This document shows, piece by piece, positions 2,357 to 59,225 of a stretch of 64,000 nt of DNA. Under the pieces are notes generated by a model. That model ran no database searches. It saw only the letters and a list, made by a program, of their open reading frames with translations, and was not told the DNA's origin. Position 1 is the first letter of the stretch. Each line of letters opens with the position of its first letter. This stretch comes from Bacteroidia bacterium (GTDB lineage Bacteria; Bacteroidota; Bacteroidia; UKL13-3). Made by a program: the position numbers and the translations under genes. The DNA lies in the NCBI GenBank assembly GCA_023151275.1, contig JAKLJI010000004.1, forward strand, positions 4,946-68,945, in the 5' to 3' direction.

Positions 2357-3085
2357 TTAGCTGTTATAGAATGCTGATACCCAGCTGGCCGATTGTATAG
2401 CTGCAGTTTCTGTACGAAGAATTGTTCTACCTAATGAAACCGGTTTGAAATGGTTCTCAATAGCTAGTTGCACTTCATCAGGTGTGAAATCGCCTTCCGG
2501 ACCAATTAAAACGAGAATATCGGCGGGTGAATTTAGGTTTGATTGCAAATGCTTTAGTAAGCCTTCGTTTTTTTCTGTTTCAACCCAAGCAATAAATCGC
2601 TCGCAATTCCATGTTTGTTGTAATTTGAAAAAGCTATCAAGTTTTTGAATTTCGCCTAGAATGGGTAGTTTGAATTGCTTGCTTTGTTTTAATGCCGAGA
2701 TGGCAATTTTTTCAAGTCGTTCCAAATTTAAGCGTGAACGTTCAGAATTTTTAGTTTCGATAAAGTACAATTCATCTAAACCAATTTCAATGCATTTCTC
2801 AAGCATCCATTCCATTCTGTCGTTATTTTTGGTGGGTGCGATAGCTAATCTTAATCGGTAGTTTCTTGCGCTGACTTGTGCTTCGATGGAGATTATTTCA
2901 AGTTCACACTTTTTTGGATGATCATTTCTAATGATTGCTAAGGCCAGATTTCCTTGCCCATCCATAATGCGAATTTGTTCCCCTTTTGCCTTTCTAAGTA
3001 CCTTAATTAGGTGTTTTGACTCCTCTTCCGGTAAGGTGATTGACTTGAATTCTAAGTTTGGGTGAAAGAAAAGAAACTCGCTCAT
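2357..3085 (-). CDS. rsmE: 16S rRNA (uracil1498-N3)-methyltransferase RsmE
   Basis: 242 aa. The C-terminal LVLIGPEGDFTPDEV...SLGRTILRTETA motif is typical of the RsmE/SPOUT family. Confidence 0.8.
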   Translation of the reverse strand: MSEFLFFHPNLEFKSITLPEEESKHLIKVLRKAKGEQIRIMDGQGNLALAIIRNDHPKKCELEIISIEAQVSARNYRLRLAIAPTKNNDRMEWMLEKCIEIGLDELYFIETKNSERSRLNLERLEKIAISALKQSKQFKLPILGEIQKLDSFFKLQQTWNCERFIAWVETEKNEGLLKHLQSNLNSPADILVLIGPEGDFTPDEVQLAIENHFKPVSLGRTILRTETAAIQSASWVSAFYNS

Positions 3086-3180: not shown

Positions 3181-4089
3181 TCAGAGCTTTTCAATTTCCT
3201 GATTTGAAAGTCCTGTAAGCTTAACAATTTCCTCGGTACTTAATCCCATTTGTTTGGCGTTCCGAGCGGTAGTTTTGAGCGCCTCTACTATACCCTCTAA
3301 TTTTCCTTCGGCAAGTCCTTCTAGTTTTCCTTCAACTAATCCTTCTAGTTTCCCTTCCAATTTACCTTCATCAAATGCAGTATCCATAACGCCTTTTAAA
3401 TCGCGGTAAATTTTTAGGCTGCTTTCGTACTTGTCCATTTCGCTTTGGCCCAATTTGGCTAATTCTGCTTTTTCAAAGGCTTGGTTGAAAACTTCATCTG
3501 AGAAAATGCTAGGGATTTGCTGAAAGTCTTCCAAGTTTTTGATGAAGTAAAGCCATTTGTCCAACCGACTTGCAAGTTCCTGTTCGGCGAGTTTGAAATT
3601 TGGCATTTCGAGGTAAATGAAAGTGAGCTTGTCGTAGAATACCTTTCCATGCTGGTTTTTGAGTTTGATGGTATGCAGCACTTCATGTTTCTCGGGTTCA
3701 GTTTCGTAATCATCAAAAGTGAAATCGAGGATTCCGATGCAGTACACCGATTTTAGTTCGTAGTTCCACTCACCTTTTTCGGCTTGTTCGCGTATTGGGA
3801 AGGTTGCGTAGTAAATTGTTCTGTCTTTGAAGAAGTTTTGCTTGGCCTTTTGAAGTTCTACAATAAACTTTTCGCCTTTTTCATTTTCGCAGTAGATATC
3901 AAAAATGGCTCTTCTGTCGTATTCGGATAAACCCGTTTGTTCGGTATTTCGGAAGTTGAGTTGGTAGATTTTATCTTCAGGAGGCAGGAGTGCATTGAGG
4001 AAATCAATAAGCAAAGGCTTACTAGCTTCTTCTCCAAAGATTTTCTTGAATCCGAAGTCGGTAAAAGGGTTAACGTACTTTGCTTTCAT
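3181..4089 (-). mobile_element. Rpn/YhgA-like PD-(D/E)XK nuclease-family putative transposase with a C-terminal (EGKLx)n repeat
   Basis: The N-terminus MKAKYVNPFTDFGFKKIFG...FDIYCENEKGEKFIVELQ is the hallmark of the PD-(D/E)XK 'putative transposase or invertase' family, which is widespread in Bacteroidetes. The C-terminus EGKLEGKLEGLVEGKLEGLAEGKLEGIVEAL is encoded by imperfect 15-nt tandem DNA repeats at about 3255-3375. Confidence 0.7.
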
Positions 4090-4250
4090 GATTTATGCAC
4101 TGACAGTTTGAAATACAAATTTACCGGATTCAGTATTAAGGTTTTCCTTGAATCTGCCTTAAATTAAATGAGGTTTACCTAAGTTATTGCATGTAATTTT
4201 TTGGATTTAAGGGGAATCTGCAATAAAAAGCGTTTCCTGAATGGAGTTGG

Positions 4251-4450
4251 AACTTGCCTGAGGGGTAGAAGCGGTACCCGCCGGTAAGGGCTGATTGAGG
4301 CTGCGCGTTTTGCGGGGCTGCCGGCAGAAAGCCACCGCAAAGCGCATGCAGGCTCTTCAGCACTTGACGGGGAGTACAAGCGGATGACCCGGCCTTTTGC
4401 CTGCACGGATTTTTGTTGTTTGAGGAATTGACCTGGCAAAAGGACAGGCC
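4251..4450 (-). repeat. GC-rich about 200-nt intergenic element, copy A (inverted relative to copy B at 56081-56283)
   Basis: It shares a core caaaaggccgggtcatccgcYtgtactcc (28/29 nt). Both copies have similar ends: ggcctgYccttttg at the 5' end and cccctcaggca at the 3' end. A terminal stem ccttttgcc/ggcaaaagg corresponds to ccttttgggc/gcccaaaagg in copy B, so the change is compensatory. The overlapping ORFs are in different frames in the two copies, which argues the element is non-coding. Confidence 0.6.
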
Positions 4451-4486
4451 CAAGTATGGTGTAAGAAGTTGGATAGGGTTAGGTGC

Positions 4487-4523
4487 AAAAAAAACGGCTT
4501 GAGAAGTTTTCTCAAGCCGTTTT
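4487..4523 (-). terminator. rho-independent terminator downstream of pckA; hairpin flanked by A8 and T4, so possibly bidirectional
   Basis: aaaaaaaa-cggcttgagaa-gtttt-ttctcaagccg-tttt. On the minus strand the stem is followed by T8. Confidence 0.65.
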
Positions 4524-4539
4524 GGATATTGAAGCTTAG

Positions 4540-24084: not shown

Positions 24085-25155
24085 ATGGCTAAAAACACAA
24101 AAAAAGCACCTGCCAAAAAGGCGGTGAAAAAGCCGGCAGCAAAAACACCTGCCAAAAAGCAAAAAGCTGCAATAAAGAAAACAGCTGCTAAAGCGCCTGC
24201 AAAAAAGGCTGTGAAAAAGGCTGCTGTGAAGAAAGCTGCTCCTAAAAAGGCTGCTATCAAAAAGGCAGTTGCTAAGAAAGCTGTGAAGCCTGCAGTGAAG
24301 AAACAAGCAGTTAAGAAGCAGGTAAAAGCAAAACCAGCTTCAAAGCCTGTTGCTAAGAAGGCAACCAAGCCGGCCGCAAAACCTGTTGCTAAAAAAGCAT
24401 CGGCAAAAAAAGCGGCTAAGGCAGTAAAGCCTGTTGCTAAGAAAGTTACAAAGACAGTTCAAAAATCTGCTCCCGTAAAATCAAGCAAGACTGCGGTAAA
24501 ATCGGCCGCAAAGAAGCTTACTAAGCCAACTGCAAAACCTGTTGCTAATAAAGCATCGGCAAAAAAGACTGCTCCTAAACCAGTATTAAAGCCAGTTGCA
24601 GAAAAAGCGGTAAAGGCCACCAAAAAGGTTCCTACAAAAGCGGTTAAGTCAGCTAAGCCATCCAAACCCGCCAAAACGGAAACCAAAGTGGTGAAGCCTT
24701 CAGCTCCGAAAAAGGAATTGCAACCAGTGGTTAGCAAAGAGCCTCATTTTGAAGAAGAAAAGCAAGAAATACTTCCCATTGAAGCAAAGCGCTACAGCGA
24801 TGTAGAATTGGAAGAGTTTCGTGAAATCATCAACAGAAAATTGAAAGTAGCTCGTGAAGAGTTGACCAACCTAATGGATCAAATGCAGAACCCGGGTTTA
24901 AACGGTGGTGCAGATACCGACAATTCCTACAATAAAATTGATGATGGATCATCTACTTCTGAAAAGGAATATTTGAGCCAATTGGCTGCTCGTCAGCGCA
25001 AGTTCATCGAGAATTTGGAAAATGCACTTATCCGTATCGAGAACAAAACCTACGGAATTTGTAAAGTTACCGGGAAGTTGATTTCCAAAGAGCGCCTGAG
25101 GGCGGTTCCACATACCACGTTGAGTATGGAAGCCAAACTTCAGCAATACAAGTAA
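24085..25155 (+). CDS. DksA/TraR-family C-terminal domain fused to an about 200-aa Lys/Ala-rich histone-H1-like N-terminal repeat region
   Basis: The track start is TTG 24079; the first ATG is 24085. The N-terminus carries (KKAxKKAAxK)n repeats. The C-terminus contains a coiled coil plus ...YGICKVTGKLISKERLRAVPHTTL, which resembles a degenerate DksA/TraR zinc-finger region. The conserved ileS-dksA-lspA gene order supports the call. Confidence 0.6.
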   Translation: MAKNTKKAPAKKAVKKPAAKTPAKKQKAAIKKTAAKAPAKKAVKKAAVKKAAPKKAAIKKAVAKKAVKPAVKKQAVKKQVKAKPASKPVAKKATKPAAKPVAKKASAKKAAKAVKPVAKKVTKTVQKSAPVKSSKTAVKSAAKKLTKPTAKPVANKASAKKTAPKPVLKPVAEKAVKATKKVPTKAVKSAKPSKPAKTETKVVKPSAPKKELQPVVSKEPHFEEEKQEILPIEAKRYSDVELEEFREIINRKLKVAREELTNLMDQMQNPGLNGGADTDNSYNKIDDGSSTSEKEYLSQLAARQRKFIENLENALIRIENKTYGICKVTGKLISKERLRAVPHTTLSMEAKLQQYK

Positions 25156-44269: not shown

Positions 44270-44575
44270 GGAATCTTCAATATTTGGTTCTATAAACCTA
44301 TTACCCCTTCAGGGTGAAATTTCGGATTACCATTTCGGTTTCAACTGTACCACCGTTCCGGATTCAATTCTAGGATAATTCTGGAACCTGATTTGGTTGT
44401 TATTTGTAATAATAATCCCGAAGGGATTGCAGGTTTATAGAAATTAGATGGATTGGACGGCAGTTCGACCCCAAAGGGGTCGTAGGTTTATAGCAATGGG
44501 TTAGTCATCAAAATTCGACCCTGAAGGGGTCGCAGAAACCACCGCAATCCCTTGGTTTTACTATGCTTTTCCCTT
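44270..44575. repeat. about 270-bp repeat unit (one copy) carrying REP-like palindromes, on the 3' flank of the Y1 transposase
   Basis: Near-identical to the units at 45295-45690. It contains the palindromes cgaccccaaaggggtcg and cgaccctgaaggggtcg. Confidence 0.75.
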
Positions 44576-44585
44576 GGTCAATTTT

Positions 44586-45047
44586 TTAATCAATCCAATT
44601 GAATAAATACTTTTCATCATGTTCAATTTCAAATTTCTTTAAAAAGTCAATATACTCCTCCTTGAAGGATGTTTTTTTATGATGCTCTTTTTGATTTTCG
44701 ATGTATTTCACCACGGCATCAATTTGTGAATGGCTGTATGAAAATGCGCCATAACCATCCTGCCAACTGAAATTAAACTTGGAAAATTTGTTTAACTGAA
44801 TGAATTCATTGCTACTTTTCTTTATTTCCCTTATCAAATCAGAAAGGCAACAAGAAGGTTTCATGCCTATGAAAATGTGGATATGATCCGCCATGCCATT
44901 TATTGCGATCAGTTTTTGCTGTTTAGCCCTTACTATACCTGTAATGTATTGGTAAAGTCTTTCTTCCCATTCTTTTTCGATTAGGCTTTCTCTCCCTTTT
45001 ACAGCAAATACCACTTGAATGTAAATTTGTGAAAATGTTCCCGCCAT
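44586..45047 (-). mobile_element. tnpA: IS200/IS605-family Y1 (HuH) transposase, RAYT-like
   Basis: 153 aa. HuH motif DHIHIFI, and the size and architecture of TnpA(IS200) / REP-associated tyrosine transposases. Confidence 0.8.
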
Positions 45048-45230
45048 ATTTCTATTTTTTTATTAAGTCAATTTGCACAAGCTGAAAGTCTTTTTAGTTT
45101 AAAATTTATGAAGTGCAATTTACCTTGAATGCTTGGGGAAATCCAATTTTGGCTCCAATAGCTTTGAATTTAAAGGACGATTTTGAGGCTGTTGTTATTA
45201 GGAATAGCAGTACTTCAGTAAAATCGGGCC

Positions 45231-45690
45231 ATGAAATTAAAAAAGGAAAATGGTGGAGGTGATTGTACGACCCCTTCAGGGGCGTGTGAATCCTATTCGC
45301 AATTTGTCCTATAAACCTATCACCCCTTCAGGGTGAATTTTTGGTTCACCATTTCGGTTTCAACTGTACCACCATTTCAGATTCAATGGTTAGATAATTC
45401 TGGAATCTTATTTGATTGCTATTTGCATCTATTATCCCAAAGGGATTACAGGTTTATAGAAATTAGATGGATTGGACGGCAGCTCGACCCCAAAGGGGTC
45501 GTAGGTTTATAGCAATGGGTTAGTCATGAAAGTTCGACCCTGAAGGGGTCGCAGAATTCTACACGCCGATTTGTCCTAAAAACCTATCAACCCATCAGGG
45601 TGAAATTTCGGATTACCATTTCGGTTTCAACTGTACCACCATTCCGGATTCAATTGTTGGATATGACCCATTCAAACAAAAAAGGCGATC
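45231..45690. repeat. about 1.4 tandem copies of the about 270-bp REP-bearing unit on the 5' flank of the transposase
   Basis: A full unit at about 45295-45570, then a partial second unit at about 45573-45690. There is an additional REP-like palindrome acgaccccttcaggggcgt at about 45266-45284. Confidence 0.75.
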
Positions 45691-51699: not shown

Positions 51700-51714
51700 G
51701 GTGTTAAAAAAACG

Positions 51715-51796
51715 TGCGGATGGAGGGACTCGAACCCCCACGCCTCTCGGCACCAGATCCTAAGTCTGGCACGGCTACCAATTACGCCACATCCGC
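51715..51796 (-). tRNA. tRNA-Leu (anticodon TAG)
   Basis: My reading of the minus strand gives GCGGATGTGGCGTAATTGGTAG...CCAGACTTAGGATCTGG...long variable arm...GGTTCGAGTCCC...CATCCGCA. That is a 7-bp acceptor stem, a CTTAGGA anticodon loop, a long variable arm and a T-loop GGTTCGAGTCC. No CCA is encoded. Confidence 0.85.
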
Positions 51797-56055: not shown

Positions 56056-56080
56056 ATCAAATTCATTTTCAGATTTGGTG

Positions 56081-56283
56081 GGCCTGCCTTTTGGGCCTCG
56101 GCAACTTCATGCACGAAGTAAATTCCTGCCGCCCAAAAGGCCGGGTCATCCGCCTGTACTCCTCGGCCGGGGATTAAGCGTCTGCATGGCTGCTGTCGGG
56201 GCTTCCTGCGGTCGCCCGCCCTCAGCCGCATCCGCTAAATCCCCGTCCTGTGGGGTACTGTCTCCTGCCCCTCAGGCAGAGGG
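56081..56283 (+). repeat. GC-rich about 200-nt element, copy B (same family as 4251-4450)
   Basis: See copy A. It lies 25 nt downstream of the purA stop and immediately upstream of the ATPase/DUF4276 islet. The overlapping 71-aa ORF is judged spurious. Confidence 0.6.
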
Positions 56284-56507
56284 AAGGTGATCTTAATTCT
56301 AAAGGTGCTAGAAAATGGAAGGAATTTTGAAATGACTTCGAAAAAAAATTGCCTCATTTTTTGATGTCAAACAGGTAGTCTTGTTATTGTCCTGAATCTC
56401 TGGAGTTGCATCATTCAAAGTGGAAGAGTTTAGAATTGTACTTTCTATGGCTTTCTTTTCAAAAACGAGTACGTTAACCTAGTTTCGGGAGGTTGAATTG
56501 TTAAAAT

Positions 56508-57698
56508 ATGCGAATTGAGAGTATTACAATCGAAAACTATAAGGTTTTTAAAAACACCACAATAAAGAATCTTCCAAGGATGTCAGTTTTTTTAGGCCCA
56601 AATGGTTCAGGAAAATCCACCTTTTTTGATGTTTTTGGCTTTCTAAGCGATTGTTTGCAAAACAATGTCAACATTGCCATAAACAGAAGAGGAGGTTTCC
56701 ACGAATTAATTTCTAGGGATACTGACCATTCCAAAAATATTAAGTTTGAGGTGAAGTTTAGAAATCCTATTCCTAATGAAGATCGACCTCCGTTAGTTAC
56801 TTATTACATCGAAATTGGATTCAATCAAGGAAGGGCCTTTATTAATAAAGAGGTTCTAAAATACCGAAGAGGTCAATATGGAAAACCTTGGCATTTTTTG
56901 GACTTTTCAAACGGTGAAGGATATGCTATTTCAAATGAGGATGAGTATGATTCAAATGAAAGTAAAGAAAAAAGGGAATTCCAAAAGGTAGCGAGTCCTG
57001 ATATTATGGCTATTAAGGGTTTAGGGCAATTTGAGAAATACAAAGTATTAAGTGCTTTTCGGACTTTGCTTGAGCGTTGGTATGTTTCAAACTTTAAAAT
57101 AGAATATGGTAGGAATTTATCAGAAACAGGAATCAGTGAACATTTATCTGTTACAGGGCATAACCTCGCACAGGTTACAAAATATTTGTACGATTACCAT
57201 AGAGATACATTTAATAAAATTTTAGAAAAATTACCAAGACGCATTCCTGGAATAAATAAAGTCGAAGCGAAGGAAACAGAAGATGGAATGATTTTACTAA
57301 AATTTCAGGATAAAAGCTTCACGAATCCATTTTTATCAAAATTCGTATCCGATGGTACCATTAAAATGTTTGCCTTTTTGATATTATTAAACGATCCAAA
57401 CCCTCATCCTCTTTTGTGTATTGAAGAACCAGAGAATTTTCTTCATCCGGATTTGCTCTTACAGTTGTGTGAAGAAATACGGGAGTATGCAGAAAGAGGG
57501 GGACAGGTTTTGGTATCTAGTCATTCTCCTGATTTTGTAAATGGGGTAAGAGTAGAAGAACTATTTTTTCTAGTAAAAAAAGATGGGTTTAGCGAAATCA
57601 GGTCCGCATTTGAAGATGAGACAGTAAAAGAACTTGCAAAGGAGAACCAGCTTGGTTGGCTTTGGCGCAACAATTACATCAACGGTGCCAATCTATGA
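56508..57698 (+). CDS. SMC/ABC-type ATPase (AAA_15/AAA_21-like), the ATPase component of a two-gene OLD-like module
   Basis: The N-terminus IESITIENYKVFKNTTIKNL..FLGPNGSGKST has a RecF/SMC-like Walker A. The C-terminus has the Walker B LLCIEEPENFLHP and the H/D-loop VSSHSPDF. Its stop overlaps the start of the next gene (ATGA). Confidence 0.75.
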   Translation: MRIESITIENYKVFKNTTIKNLPRMSVFLGPNGSGKSTFFDVFGFLSDCLQNNVNIAINRRGGFHELISRDTDHSKNIKFEVKFRNPIPNEDRPPLVTYYIEIGFNQGRAFINKEVLKYRRGQYGKPWHFLDFSNGEGYAISNEDEYDSNESKEKREFQKVASPDIMAIKGLGQFEKYKVLSAFRTLLERWYVSNFKIEYGRNLSETGISEHLSVTGHNLAQVTKYLYDYHRDTFNKILEKLPRRIPGINKVEAKETEDGMILLKFQDKSFTNPFLSKFVSDGTIKMFAFLILLNDPNPHPLLCIEEPENFLHPDLLLQLCEEIREYAERGGQVLVSSHSPDFVNGVRVEELFFLVKKDGFSEIRSAFEDETVKELAKENQLGWLWRNNYINGANL

Positions 57699-58270
57699 AA
57701 TTCATCCATATTTTCGTTGAAGAACCTTCAATAAAGCGAGTGCTTGATGTGATTATTCCGAAGTTGTTACCTGAAGGCGTATTTTATTAGGTTTATCCAC
57801 ATCAGGGGAAGCAGGTCCTTGAAAAAGCAATTATTTCCGCTCTTCCAAGTCTTAGTATGATCCCAGGTTCACGAATAATAATTTCACGAGATCAAGATAG
57901 TGCGGATTGTAAGGAAATAAAAAATAGGCTTGAGCAAATTGCACAGGGCAGGCTATCCTGTCCTTTTAAAATTCGGATTGTTTGCAGGGAGCTTGAAAGC
58001 TGGTTTTTAGGGGACCTCTCTGCATTGGCTAAAACCTATCCTAGATTTAAACCAGAATCAATCTCCCATAAAAGTGAATTGCGTTTTGTAGACGAAATTT
58101 TCAAACCATCTACTTTGCTACTAAAGGTTATCCCTGAATATGCACAATTTGCTTTCCTGCCTAAAATTGAAAATGCTGAGAAAATAGCTCCTAATCTGGA
58201 TTTGAATAGGAATACTTCGAGTAGTTTTATTCAAATGATACAAGCGATTAAATATTTAGCAGAGATTTAA
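57695..58270 (+). pseudogene. DUF4276-family (TOPRIM-like) gene interrupted by a single in-frame TAG at 57788-57790
   Basis: Continuous reading from ATG 57695 gives MKFIHIFVEEPSIKRVLDVIIPKLLPEGVFY, then a stop, then VYPHQGKQ...SMIPGSRIIISRDQDSADC.... The track ORF 57857-58270 is the downstream part. The N-terminal pattern MK.I.IFVEE....L..I.P.L matches the remembered DUF4276 N-terminus. The FVEE and RDQD motifs are TOPRIM-like. Confidence 0.55.
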
Positions 58271-58434
58271 GTTGGAATAGAGAATCGTCTTCGATAATGT
58301 AATTGGTTGCTGTTTTTTTAGCAAAGGAATTACGAATAAACCTTGGTGCCAGAAGACCACTCAATTCATTTCAACTAATTTATTGAGGGAGAATTTCGTT
58401 AAGCCCTTTTCGGAGTTATCGAGAAAAAGTATGT

Positions 58435-58788
58435 TCAATGGCTGTCGGATTTCGCTTCTTGCTCGTCTCTTTTTGAATCATAAAAAAGAATACCTACCCG
58501 TTGAATGTGGTTGATAAACTCAGGGTTGTTAAGCGAAGTAAAATCAACCAAATCTACAGCTACTGGTAGGCTGCTTTCGGCACAATCTGCCAATATTCGG
58601 CTTATGGTTTTGGGTTGTAACCCGGTATTCATTACCGCCAGGTCAATATCACTGCCAATAGTATAATTTCCTTTCGCCCTGCTTCCAAAAAGATGTACCT
58701 CCTTAACATCGGTATATTTTTTAAAAATGGCATACAATTCCCCAATGTTTCGCTCTGTTAGGCCGAATTTGTTCTGTTCTTTACTCAT
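58435..58788 (-). CDS. minimal nucleotidyltransferase (MntA/HI0073-like antitoxin)
   Basis: LFGSRAKGNYTIGSDIDLAV is a GSx9-13DxD pol-beta nucleotidyltransferase motif. Confidence 0.8.
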   Translation of the reverse strand: MSKEQNKFGLTERNIGELYAIFKKYTDVKEVHLFGSRAKGNYTIGSDIDLAVMNTGLQPKTISRILADCAESSLPVAVDLVDFTSLNNPEFINHIQRVGILFYDSKRDEQEAKSDSH

Positions 58789-58802
58789 CTAATCTCATCA
58801 AA

Positions 58803-59225
58803 CTAGTTAGCTTGTGATTCATTAATTTGTTGCTGAAAGAATTCGTAAAGTGCTTTTAATGCCGGAAAGGTTTCTTGGCGTAATTGCTCTTCTGCACGTT
58901 CAAACTTTTGACCATCATAATCGTGCGATAGTTCATTTCGTAGGTCCAGCCCGTCTATTAACTCTTGCGCATAGCCAATATAGCCGCCTTCTTGCGCCTT
59001 CCTAAAGGTGTCTTTAGGCGAAGGTTTAAATGCAAAGCCCTTTTCTACTAGAAAATCTTTTGTAGTTTTCCAAGCCAGTTCCAGGGTGAATTCAAAGCGC
59101 TGAACCAGCCCATTTCGTTCCAGTTCGTTTAATTCATCTTCTGCCATAGCCTCACTCAGACGATTAAACGCTCTCTCGAAATTGGCAAATCGTTGTTTCC
59201 AGCGTATGTCTTTTTCTTCCATCAT
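58803..59225 (-). CDS. HEPN-domain protein (nucleotidyltransferase-substrate-binding, HI0074/HepT-like toxin)
   Basis: Rx4-6H motif (RNELSHDY) in an about 140-aa all-helical protein, adjacent to the minimal nucleotidyltransferase. Confidence 0.75.
   Translation of the reverse strand: MMEEKDIRWKQRFANFERAFNRLSEAMAEDELNELERNGLVQRFEFTLELAWKTTKDFLVEKGFAFKPSPKDTFRKAQEGGYIGYAQELIDGLDLRNELSHDYDGQKFERAEEQLRQETFPALKALYEFFQQQINESQAN

Follow-up and report, generated by a model that had tools for sequence, protein, structure and literature searches.

The window analysed here, a 64-kb stretch of Bacteroidia bacterium DNA, contains two copies of a GC-rich element of about 200 nt. Copy A (197 nt, 4256-4452, forward strand) and copy B (199 nt, 56079-56277, reverse strand) are refined limits of a repeat that the original prediction had placed close to these coordinates. 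The two are alignable over about 200 nt and have G+C contents of 63-67%, against 41% for the window. In copy A, a 5-bp closing helix (P1) is formed by GCCUG (4256-4260) and CAGGC (4445-4449), and it encloses a long arm (4262-4390), with the foot GGGGUAGAAGCGGUAC / GUACAAGCGGAUGACCC, variable stems and the apical loop GGCUGCCGGCAGAAAGCC, and, after a junction of one or two G, the hairpin P4 (4391-4444 including the junction; CCUUUUGCC...GGCAAAAGG), which has an AU-rich top. The 3' strand of P1 runs into a CCA tail (4445-4452 together). The corresponding parts of copy B, all on the reverse strand, are P1 (56277-56273 with 56086-56082), the long arm (56271-56143), P4 (56142-56087) and the CCA tail (56081-56079). 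The three-way-junction fold of copy A has a minimum free energy of -96.2 kcal/mol (z -4.9), and the covariance model scores copies A and B at 102.7 bits (E 8e-22) and 116.2 bits (E 6e-25), respectively. No third copy was found in the window by nhmmer at maximum sensitivity or by the covariance model with filters off, the next match scoring 16 bits.

The core that had been described as near-identical in both copies is an exact match of 29 nt, GGAGTACARGCGGATGACCCGGCCTTTTG, located at 4371-4399 (forward strand) in copy A and 56134-56162 (reverse strand) in copy B, with two matches in the window versus 0.00 expected from shuffles. In copy A it extends over the long arm's 3' foot and the junction leading to P4. 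Protein-coding conservation, already discounted in the original prediction, was rejected because the overlapping ORFs run in different frames across the core (4184-4453, reverse strand, phase 0; 56075-56290, forward strand, phase 2). A compensatory stem change between the copies had also been claimed. The change is real, from CCUUUUGCC/GGCAAAAGG in copy A to CCUUUUGGGC/GCCCAAAAGG in copy B, and lies in P4, which is 3'-proximal on the best-folding strand.

Copy A is located 32 nt past the intrinsic terminator of pckA (4488-4525, reverse strand; a hairpin and an 8-T run), which comparison with the related loci L096 and L097 places outside the element, and copy B 21 nt past the purA stop codon. 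On the 5' side of copy A is a PDDEXK_2 gene (Rpn-like nuclease or "putative transposase"; 3181-4089, reverse strand; Pfam E 3.7e-72), and on the 5' side of copy B is an accessory islet (56508-59225), absent from relatives, with genes for an AAA_21/AAA_15 ATPase (56508-57698, forward strand), a DUF4276 protein (57857-58270, forward strand), a nucleotidyltransferase (58435-58788, reverse strand) and an NTase_sub_bind-like protein (58803-59225, reverse strand). That both copies sit 3' of housekeeping genes, as first reported, is true but incomplete, since the element and the accessory genes are missing in pckA and purA relatives. Copy A and the PDDEXK_2 gene form an insertion between pckA and rsmE: in L096 and L097 (PckA 92-93% identical) the order is pckA, terminator, 75 nt and rsmE, with both inserted parts absent. 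Copy B and its islet are inserted between purA and a SIMPL gene; relatives whose PurA is 86-91% identical have pdxJ, a terminator, or an AT-rich spacer leading to the SIMPL gene after purA. A search at the far end of this islet revealed no remnant of the element. From these comparisons, both window copies appear to be recent, lineage-specific arrivals together with their cargo. The islet at 56508-59225 is a probable defence or toxin-antitoxin islet, and genes assigned by eye or motif only include HipA-like genes and a type I restriction subunit-like gene near L044, a possible SIR2-like ORF near L045 and a PD-(D/E)xK-like 551-aa protein near L100. A link of the element to the PDDEXK_2, AAA_21 or DUF4276 genes was rejected, as these are seen at the window loci only, and GC skew over the window is too weak for relating copy orientation to replication.

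Relatives were retrieved by two scans. A core scan of species-representative genomes returned two true relatives (L010 and L011, both in one Saprospiraceae MAG) and 27 chance matches, and a two-block pattern scan of metagenomes returned 39 loci, about 29 of them real; removal of duplicates left 22 distinct members from the metagenomes and the Saprospiraceae MAG. Two scans of viral contigs gave chance matches only, in GC-rich coding DNA. The family is found in a clade of uncultured Bacteroidota, namely a Saprospiraceae MAG and related freshwater or marine MAGs, and NCBI annotation assigns the PurA and PckA proteins of the window to uncultured Bacteroidota/Bacteroidia MAGs. Metagenome Ga0102832 contains at least eight distinct copies, with an exact copy A (L063), a near copy B (L036, the only case of two copies within 1.1 kb) and six or more others, all distinct, on further large contigs, so the family is multi-copy within a genome. 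Median identity in the long arm is 57%, and in P4 identity over all non-redundant pairs is about 46%, the background level. The retrieval patterns were built on the two foot blocks, and the invariance of the foot is therefore partly ascertainment, whereas the helices were not ascertained.

Folded alone, each of the 22 non-redundant members gives the same three-way junction, with the order, 5' to 3', of the P1 5' strand, a junction A, the long arm, one or two junction G, P4, the P1 3' strand and the tail; P1 unites both element ends. The long arm is 125-138 nt in length and has a purine-rich foot, invariant and largely non-canonical, AGGGGYAGNAG / GCGGAUGACCC, built from GGG/CCC, a 6x6 loop (GYAGNA/GGAUGA), GC/GC, a 1x2 loop and GUAC/GUAC; within the 6x6 loop, G-A, Y-G, A-U, G-A, N-G and A-G oppositions are possible. 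Above the foot the stems are variable, and the apex is one of a few loop motifs, either GACNNNNRGAA closed by GGC/GCC or GGCUC-tetraloop-GAGAC. P4 (11-83 nt) has no conserved sequence. The first base of P1 is G in 19/19 members and conservation begins exactly there, with U at -1 in 14/19, and the 3' tail is C (17/19), C (13/19), A (15/19). Both strands of the element fold stably, but the forward strand (AGGGG...GACCC) is the more stable in 15/20 members (mean -86 vs -78 kcal/mol) and its stems contain about 18 G-U cells versus 6 A-C cells, which indicates that this strand is the one that folds, as RNA or as single-stranded DNA. An intrinsic terminator of the element's own was not found, the structure is not followed by a U-run on either strand, and no promoter motif was seen by eye at a fixed distance from it.

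Covariation is strong in P1, the long arm and P4. Ten different Watson-Crick combinations of P1 occur across the family, and the reverse complement of the P1 5-mer preceding AGGGG is found downstream in 18/19 members versus 7.7% in a control that combined 5' strands with the downstream regions of other members (binomial tail ~1.6e-19). For the long arm, an RNAalifold structure of the 11 type-1 members has 34 pairs, 17 of them changed on both sides. Paired cells make up 89% (75% in shuffles), double-change cells number 55 (19.9 in shuffles), and 0/500 shuffles attain the observed value by any measure; with partners slid by 1-3 columns, 31-42% of cells are paired. P4 hairpins have a median z of -3.1, and a compensatory change from G-C to C-G separates copy B from its ortholog at L036. 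The proposal that compensatory change maintains a conserved helix, drawn earlier from two copies, is upheld by covariation in P1 and the long arm that is far stronger than two copies could give; further copies and covariation, which the original prediction had suggested looking for, were both found. A copy upstream of pyrG is held at the same site in two species whose PyrG proteins are 87% identical, and its stems are nearly all rewritten between the species with pairing intact. The fold, the covariation and the maintenance at this conserved locus together show that the element is a functional structured nucleic acid.

An Rfam search with the element, also suggested at the outset, was run and yields no matching family in Rfam 15. 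Nothing relevant appeared at E<10 for either copy, 14 related loci had no match, and the sole Rfam or ARAGORN match in the window is the tRNA-Leu at 51714-51796 (anticodon TAG, long variable arm); ARAGORN found nothing tRNA-like in the element. Literature searches by element sequence and for structured RNAs of Saprospiraceae or Bacteroidetes turned up no description of the family. The family is uncatalogued, being outside Rfam 15 and without a description in the searchable literature. Surveys of GC-rich intergenic regions have described orphan structured bacterial ncRNAs (PMC2864571, PMC6429828, PMC8632094), and the element resembles these in being a GC-rich island in an AT-rich intergenic region with a covarying multi-helix fold and conserved internal loops. 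It differs from them in that not one of Rfam 15's 4227 models matches it, with E<10 as the limit, and in being multi-copy with recombination mosaicism. The element is new but of a broadly known kind, that of orphan structured RNAs or structured intergenic repeats, and its unusual features are the branched fold, the deep within-genome divergence with structure kept, and the location at points of accessory-DNA exchange.

The original prediction had offered three candidate explanations (a small ncRNA family, a MITE-like repeat and an integration site), none of which is proven; the small ncRNA family fits best, the MITE is unsupported and the integration site is partly supported. We tentatively favour, at somewhat below an even chance, the reading that the family consists of stand-alone structured RNAs and that the invariant core of the dispersed copies may also serve as a recombination crossover. 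RNA is favoured because the covarying P1 helix encloses the entire element and bridges the putative crossover, because conservation is concentrated in a non-canonical, purine-rich helix of the sort typical for RNA-protein platforms, because some copies stand alone between housekeeping genes (e.g. L038, ilvC-E-pyrG, and L010), and because the conservation ends are sharp and tRNA-like (U-1/G+1, CCA). Several observations count against RNA. Neither a promoter motif at a fixed distance nor a terminator of the element was found, and ARAGORN recognised nothing tRNA-like. At L010 the element lies between two co-directional photolyase-family genes with 2 and about 10 nt to spare, and so fills the gap and leaves no room for a promoter of its own. 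The window copies and their accessory genes are also jointly absent in relatives, which fits an element travelling as DNA at least equally well.

The placement of copies bears on whether the element is a (formerly) mobile, non-autonomous structured DNA repeat of the REP/ERIC/PATE kind, spreading past gene ends and mobilised in trans. The family has reached new loci within a short time, copies A and B being absent in relatives with 86-93% identical PckA or PurA, and copies are fitted tightly into short intergenic gaps just past stop codons or terminators (L010, L034, L044 and L050). Orientation relative to neighbouring genes is random, there are multiple copies per genome, and contig assemblies break at the element, all of which favour a mobile repeat. 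Set against this, the 5 bp of P1 are the only terminal inverted repeat, target-site duplications are absent, and the T at -1 is all there is of a conserved target motif; the copies within a genome are old and diverged (median long-arm identity 57%; P4 about 46% over all non-redundant pairs), unlike those of recently active MITEs; no transposase, RAYT or reverse transcriptase is consistently near; and the intact pyrG-linked copy implies selection at that locus. We consider a mobile repeat of this kind rather unlikely, and give the same weight to its corollary that the hairpins would be recognised by a mobilising enzyme or by a host process, for instance the protection of mRNA 3' ends, and the fold kept for that reason. 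A classical MITE was rejected, given the lack of terminal inverted repeats beyond P1, the lack of target duplications in the flanks and the diverged within-genome copies. Like REP, BIME, ERIC and bcr1 repeats, the element is multi-copy and intergenic, occurs preferentially at gene 3' ends and in convergent gene pairs, is a hotspot of recombination, has some positionally conserved copies and is probably transcribed together with its neighbours; in contrast to them, it is much larger and branched, carries conserved non-canonical loops, shows extreme within-genome divergence with its structure kept, and has no RAYT-type partner seen near its copies. REP palindromes of RAYT systems are 20-40 nt and come with a cognate RAYT gene, whereas the element is a branched structure of 190 nt.

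About half of the copies lie 0-70 nt from a gene's 3' end, and many copies either do so or abut the terminator of a convergent gene. The closeness to gene 3' ends would also suit a cis-acting transcript element (a 3'-end stabiliser, terminator or insulator) that works within neighbouring mRNAs and shields or separates housekeeping genes from acquired ones. At purA the element is the sole terminator candidate, no other terminator being seen, and the stability of both strands would serve such a role. A terminator or stabiliser would nonetheless be odd without a U-run after the structure on either strand, and the conserved purine-rich loops and the strand asymmetry would be superfluous for simple stabilisation; pckA retains its own terminator beside copy A, and orientation to the adjacent gene is inconsistent. 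We regard a cis-acting role as improbable. The downstream gene is convergent in about 10/18 contexts and the same-strand downstream genes are unrelated, and no recurrent flanking protein family was found within 3.5 kb on either side of 19 distinct loci. A riboswitch or 5' leader was rejected, as the downstream genes are not consistently on the same strand and are functionally unrelated, and a retron ncRNA, an OMEGA (TnpB, IscB) RNA and an IS110 bridge RNA were rejected for lack of the partner gene at the flanks.

The 5' and 3' halves of the element are mosaic across strains, with most junctions at the invariant core. Strains whose PurA proteins are 99-100% identical show three arrangements of the purA locus. 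The first is that of the window. In the second, a 1-kb insert with genes for an HTH protein and a receiver-domain protein is bordered by direct duplicates of 131 nt of the 5' module, the left one ending at GCGGAT. The third has another upstream flank, and its 5' module, similar to that of the guaB-linked L044, continues into the purA-specific P4. At other loci, 93-97% identity in the long arm goes together with unrelated P4 hairpins and unrelated downstream DNA, and similarity stops directly after GATGACCCG. A single upstream flank was seen with three different downstream regions, and a single downstream region with two upstream flanks, and the recent chimeras L061 and L054 have a P1 mismatch. 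Other junctions fall outside the core, at the 5' edge of the element (L054 vs L062) and about 25 nt upstream of the core (L053 vs L054). The overall junction pattern is what recombination between dispersed repeats would give, with the core as the only long identical stretch, and only the GCGGAT junction needs another explanation. A recombination role of the invariant core is supported under any reading.

These junctions would suit an attachment or recombination site, in double-stranded form or as an attC-like folded strand, at which a site-specific recombinase would insert and swap accessory modules by crossover between GCGGAU and GACCCG in the 3' foot of the long arm. The near-identical long arms with unrelated P4 and downstream DNA, and the purA form whose duplication ends at GCGGAT, fit this, as do the accessory or defence-type genes beside A, B, L044 and L045, the Xer/IntI-like tyrosine recombinase gene 155-270 nt away at two independent loci, and the attC-like build of the long arm (conserved at the foot, with a 3x3 unpaired spacer and a second box bearing extra-helical bases, and variable at the top). 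The junctions outside the core are instead those that homologous recombination would give, and the P1 helix, which pairs over the proposed crossover and covaries in 18/19, would be hard to maintain under free exchange of halves. The element further lacks an AAC/GTT core, many copies have housekeeping genes on both sides, no such integrase is present in the window, and the nearby recombinase has its own canonical site on its opposite side and no IntI-specific insertion. We consider the attachment site unlikely. The integration-site motif put forward originally is partly supported by the mosaic junctions at the core and by the inserted accessory DNA next to both copies; the recombinase that would act there is putative.

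The likeness to integron attC sites is one of architecture. The long arm of the element is an imperfect hairpin of 125-138 nt (57-141 nt for attC) with a foot conserved on both strands, a spacer that is unpaired, a second paired box containing extra-helical bases, and a variable top with compensatory changes, and it lies beside accessory or defence genes with mosaic junctions at the 3' foot. The differences are in the foot, which in all members is AGGGGYA...UGACCCG with no RYYYAAC/GTTRRRY core, in the copies, which are single and dispersed rather than arrayed, and in P4 and P1, which span the putative crossover; genuine attI and attC sites in related loci carry AAC/GTTA cores, unlike the element. 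No cassette arrays ending in the element were found, and no integrase with an IntI-specific insertion was found beside the copies.

The tyrosine recombinase gene lies in a shared upstream flank, divergent from the element and starting 270 nt from it, and a truncated relative is 155-230 nt from another copy. Its product is closest to the XerA and integron-integrase models, below their cut-offs, and lacks the IntI-specific insertion (20 residues vs 62 in VchIntIA). Its own site is on its other side, where four contigs are identical up to GGGTATAAGTAAGTTA and then have three continuations; after AAGTAAGTTA come three cassette contents with canonical AAC...GTT attC hairpins. A 48% identical relative at rplU-rpmA has six cassette sets in eight contigs after ACAAGTTA. 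The 64-kb window itself contains no integrase of this family. Examined as a candidate cognate enzyme of the element, the recombinase gave no direct support for that role, since it is one of a Xer-like group running integron-like cassette arrays and has its own GTTA attI beyond the gene. The integron platform is one more type of accessory DNA beside the element.

Several further features were noted in passing. What look like integron-like platforms, run by an Xer-like recombinase lacking the IntI-specific insertion, are present at L103-L110 (e.g. L103:4001-8714), L100:1264-1427, L054:2200-2735 and L053. In L103-L110 an identical integrase follows rplU-rpmA, a conserved spacer of about 265 nt leads to TATATACAAGTTA, and six gene sets in eight contigs are split by attC-like hairpins of 130-150 nt (GCTAACA...GGTTTGGCAAAAGTGG...CCACCTTCGCCAAGCC...ACGTTA). 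Platforms of this Xer-run, integron-like type may be under-described in Bacteroidota, since IntegronFinder surveys report complete integrons to be very rare in Bacteroidetes (PMC9024848). The integrase next to the element at L053:1450-2535 (also in L054 and L065) has the same frameshift, in an A-run near ...NVIKK, in three independent assemblies and is intact in Logan assemblies (L100:202-1263; 353 aa, P0241). A pseudogene, phase variation or an assembly error common to all three could account for this. About 1.4 kb from an element copy, and beside a truncated integrase, lies a fragment of a group II intron maturase domain (GIIM; L042:2-349). Purine-only, GA-rich tracts of about 85 nt on the same strand flank some copies (L053:2695-2790 and 3000-3080), also upstream of L032, L034, L054 and L061, and short-read contigs end there; a conserved stretch, GTTTG...GTGGGKYTTT, stands right before P1. 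In L103-L110, the interval from the integrase to attI contains a GA-rich tract of similar kind.

Genes for tRNA and tmRNA are integration hotspots for islands and for integrative elements such as tycheposons. The element shares with them a structured, conserved, multi-copy nature, a position on the border of core and accessory DNA, a partial duplicate flanking an insert, a tyrosine recombinase adjoining some loci, and tRNA-like ends (G+1, U-1, CCA and the P1/P4 stack). In contrast to them it has no cloverleaf or T-loop and is negative by ARAGORN, the duplicated part is the 5' two-thirds of the element and not its 3' end, the recombinase has another cognate site, and the element is missing in close relatives at both window loci. 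A broader version of the recombination reading would make the element a structured anchor, an RNA gene or DNA site with a fixed crossover between GCGGAU and GACCCG, at which a dedicated putative recombinase would plug accessory modules beside housekeeping genes. The modules would be defence islets or even a whole integron platform, and incoming DNA would bring a replacement for the 5' two-thirds of the element; we judge this anchor reading quite unlikely. Such an anchor would function like the sites of tRNA-targeting islands or attC cassettes, except that the site is unrelated to either and three-armed.

For the favoured reading of stand-alone RNAs, the analysis shows the fold, its covariation, the paralogous multi-copy character and the lack of any coding or cis-regulatory logic. 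Beyond these, the foot and the junction would form the functional core, probably a protein-binding platform, with the stems as scaffold. The RNA may be excised from read-through transcripts or from transcripts of nearby promoters, with no fixed promoter of its own, and such release by processing would account for the missing fixed promoter. A coaxial stack of P1 on P4, with U-1/G+1 and the 3' CCA, would resemble an RNase P minihelix substrate. The copies may act as crossover points, with one another and with incoming DNA. A crossover role is suggested by the 25-30-nt identical core that all copies share amid diverged sequence, and it would explain the strain-swapped flanks and the gathering of accessory genes beside copies.

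If the element is an RNA, it is a new and well-supported class of structured bacterial RNA, with a clear three-way junction and an invariant non-canonical core, occurring as several paralogous copies per genome in a poorly studied clade of uncultured Bacteroidota, and its multi-copy occurrence would make the family a direct target for RNA-seq, pull-down and structural work. Whatever the molecular role, the copies mark places of accessory-DNA exchange, and strains that are identical in housekeeping genes differ precisely at the element. The family can therefore serve in practice to mark flexible regions of these genomes, and exchange at the element explains the assembly breaks there in these organisms.

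Two other features of the window were noted. A separate repeat family at 44284-45663 comprises a pair of direct repeats of 254 nt (89% identical) and a partial third copy of 94 nt, each carrying 26-nt inverted repeats (CTATAAACCTATTACCCCTTCAGGGT / ACCCCAAAGGGGTCGTAGGTTTATAG). At 24105-24620 is a tandem-repetitive coding region, rich in Lys, Ala and Pro and of the AKKA type, with several nested direct-repeat families.
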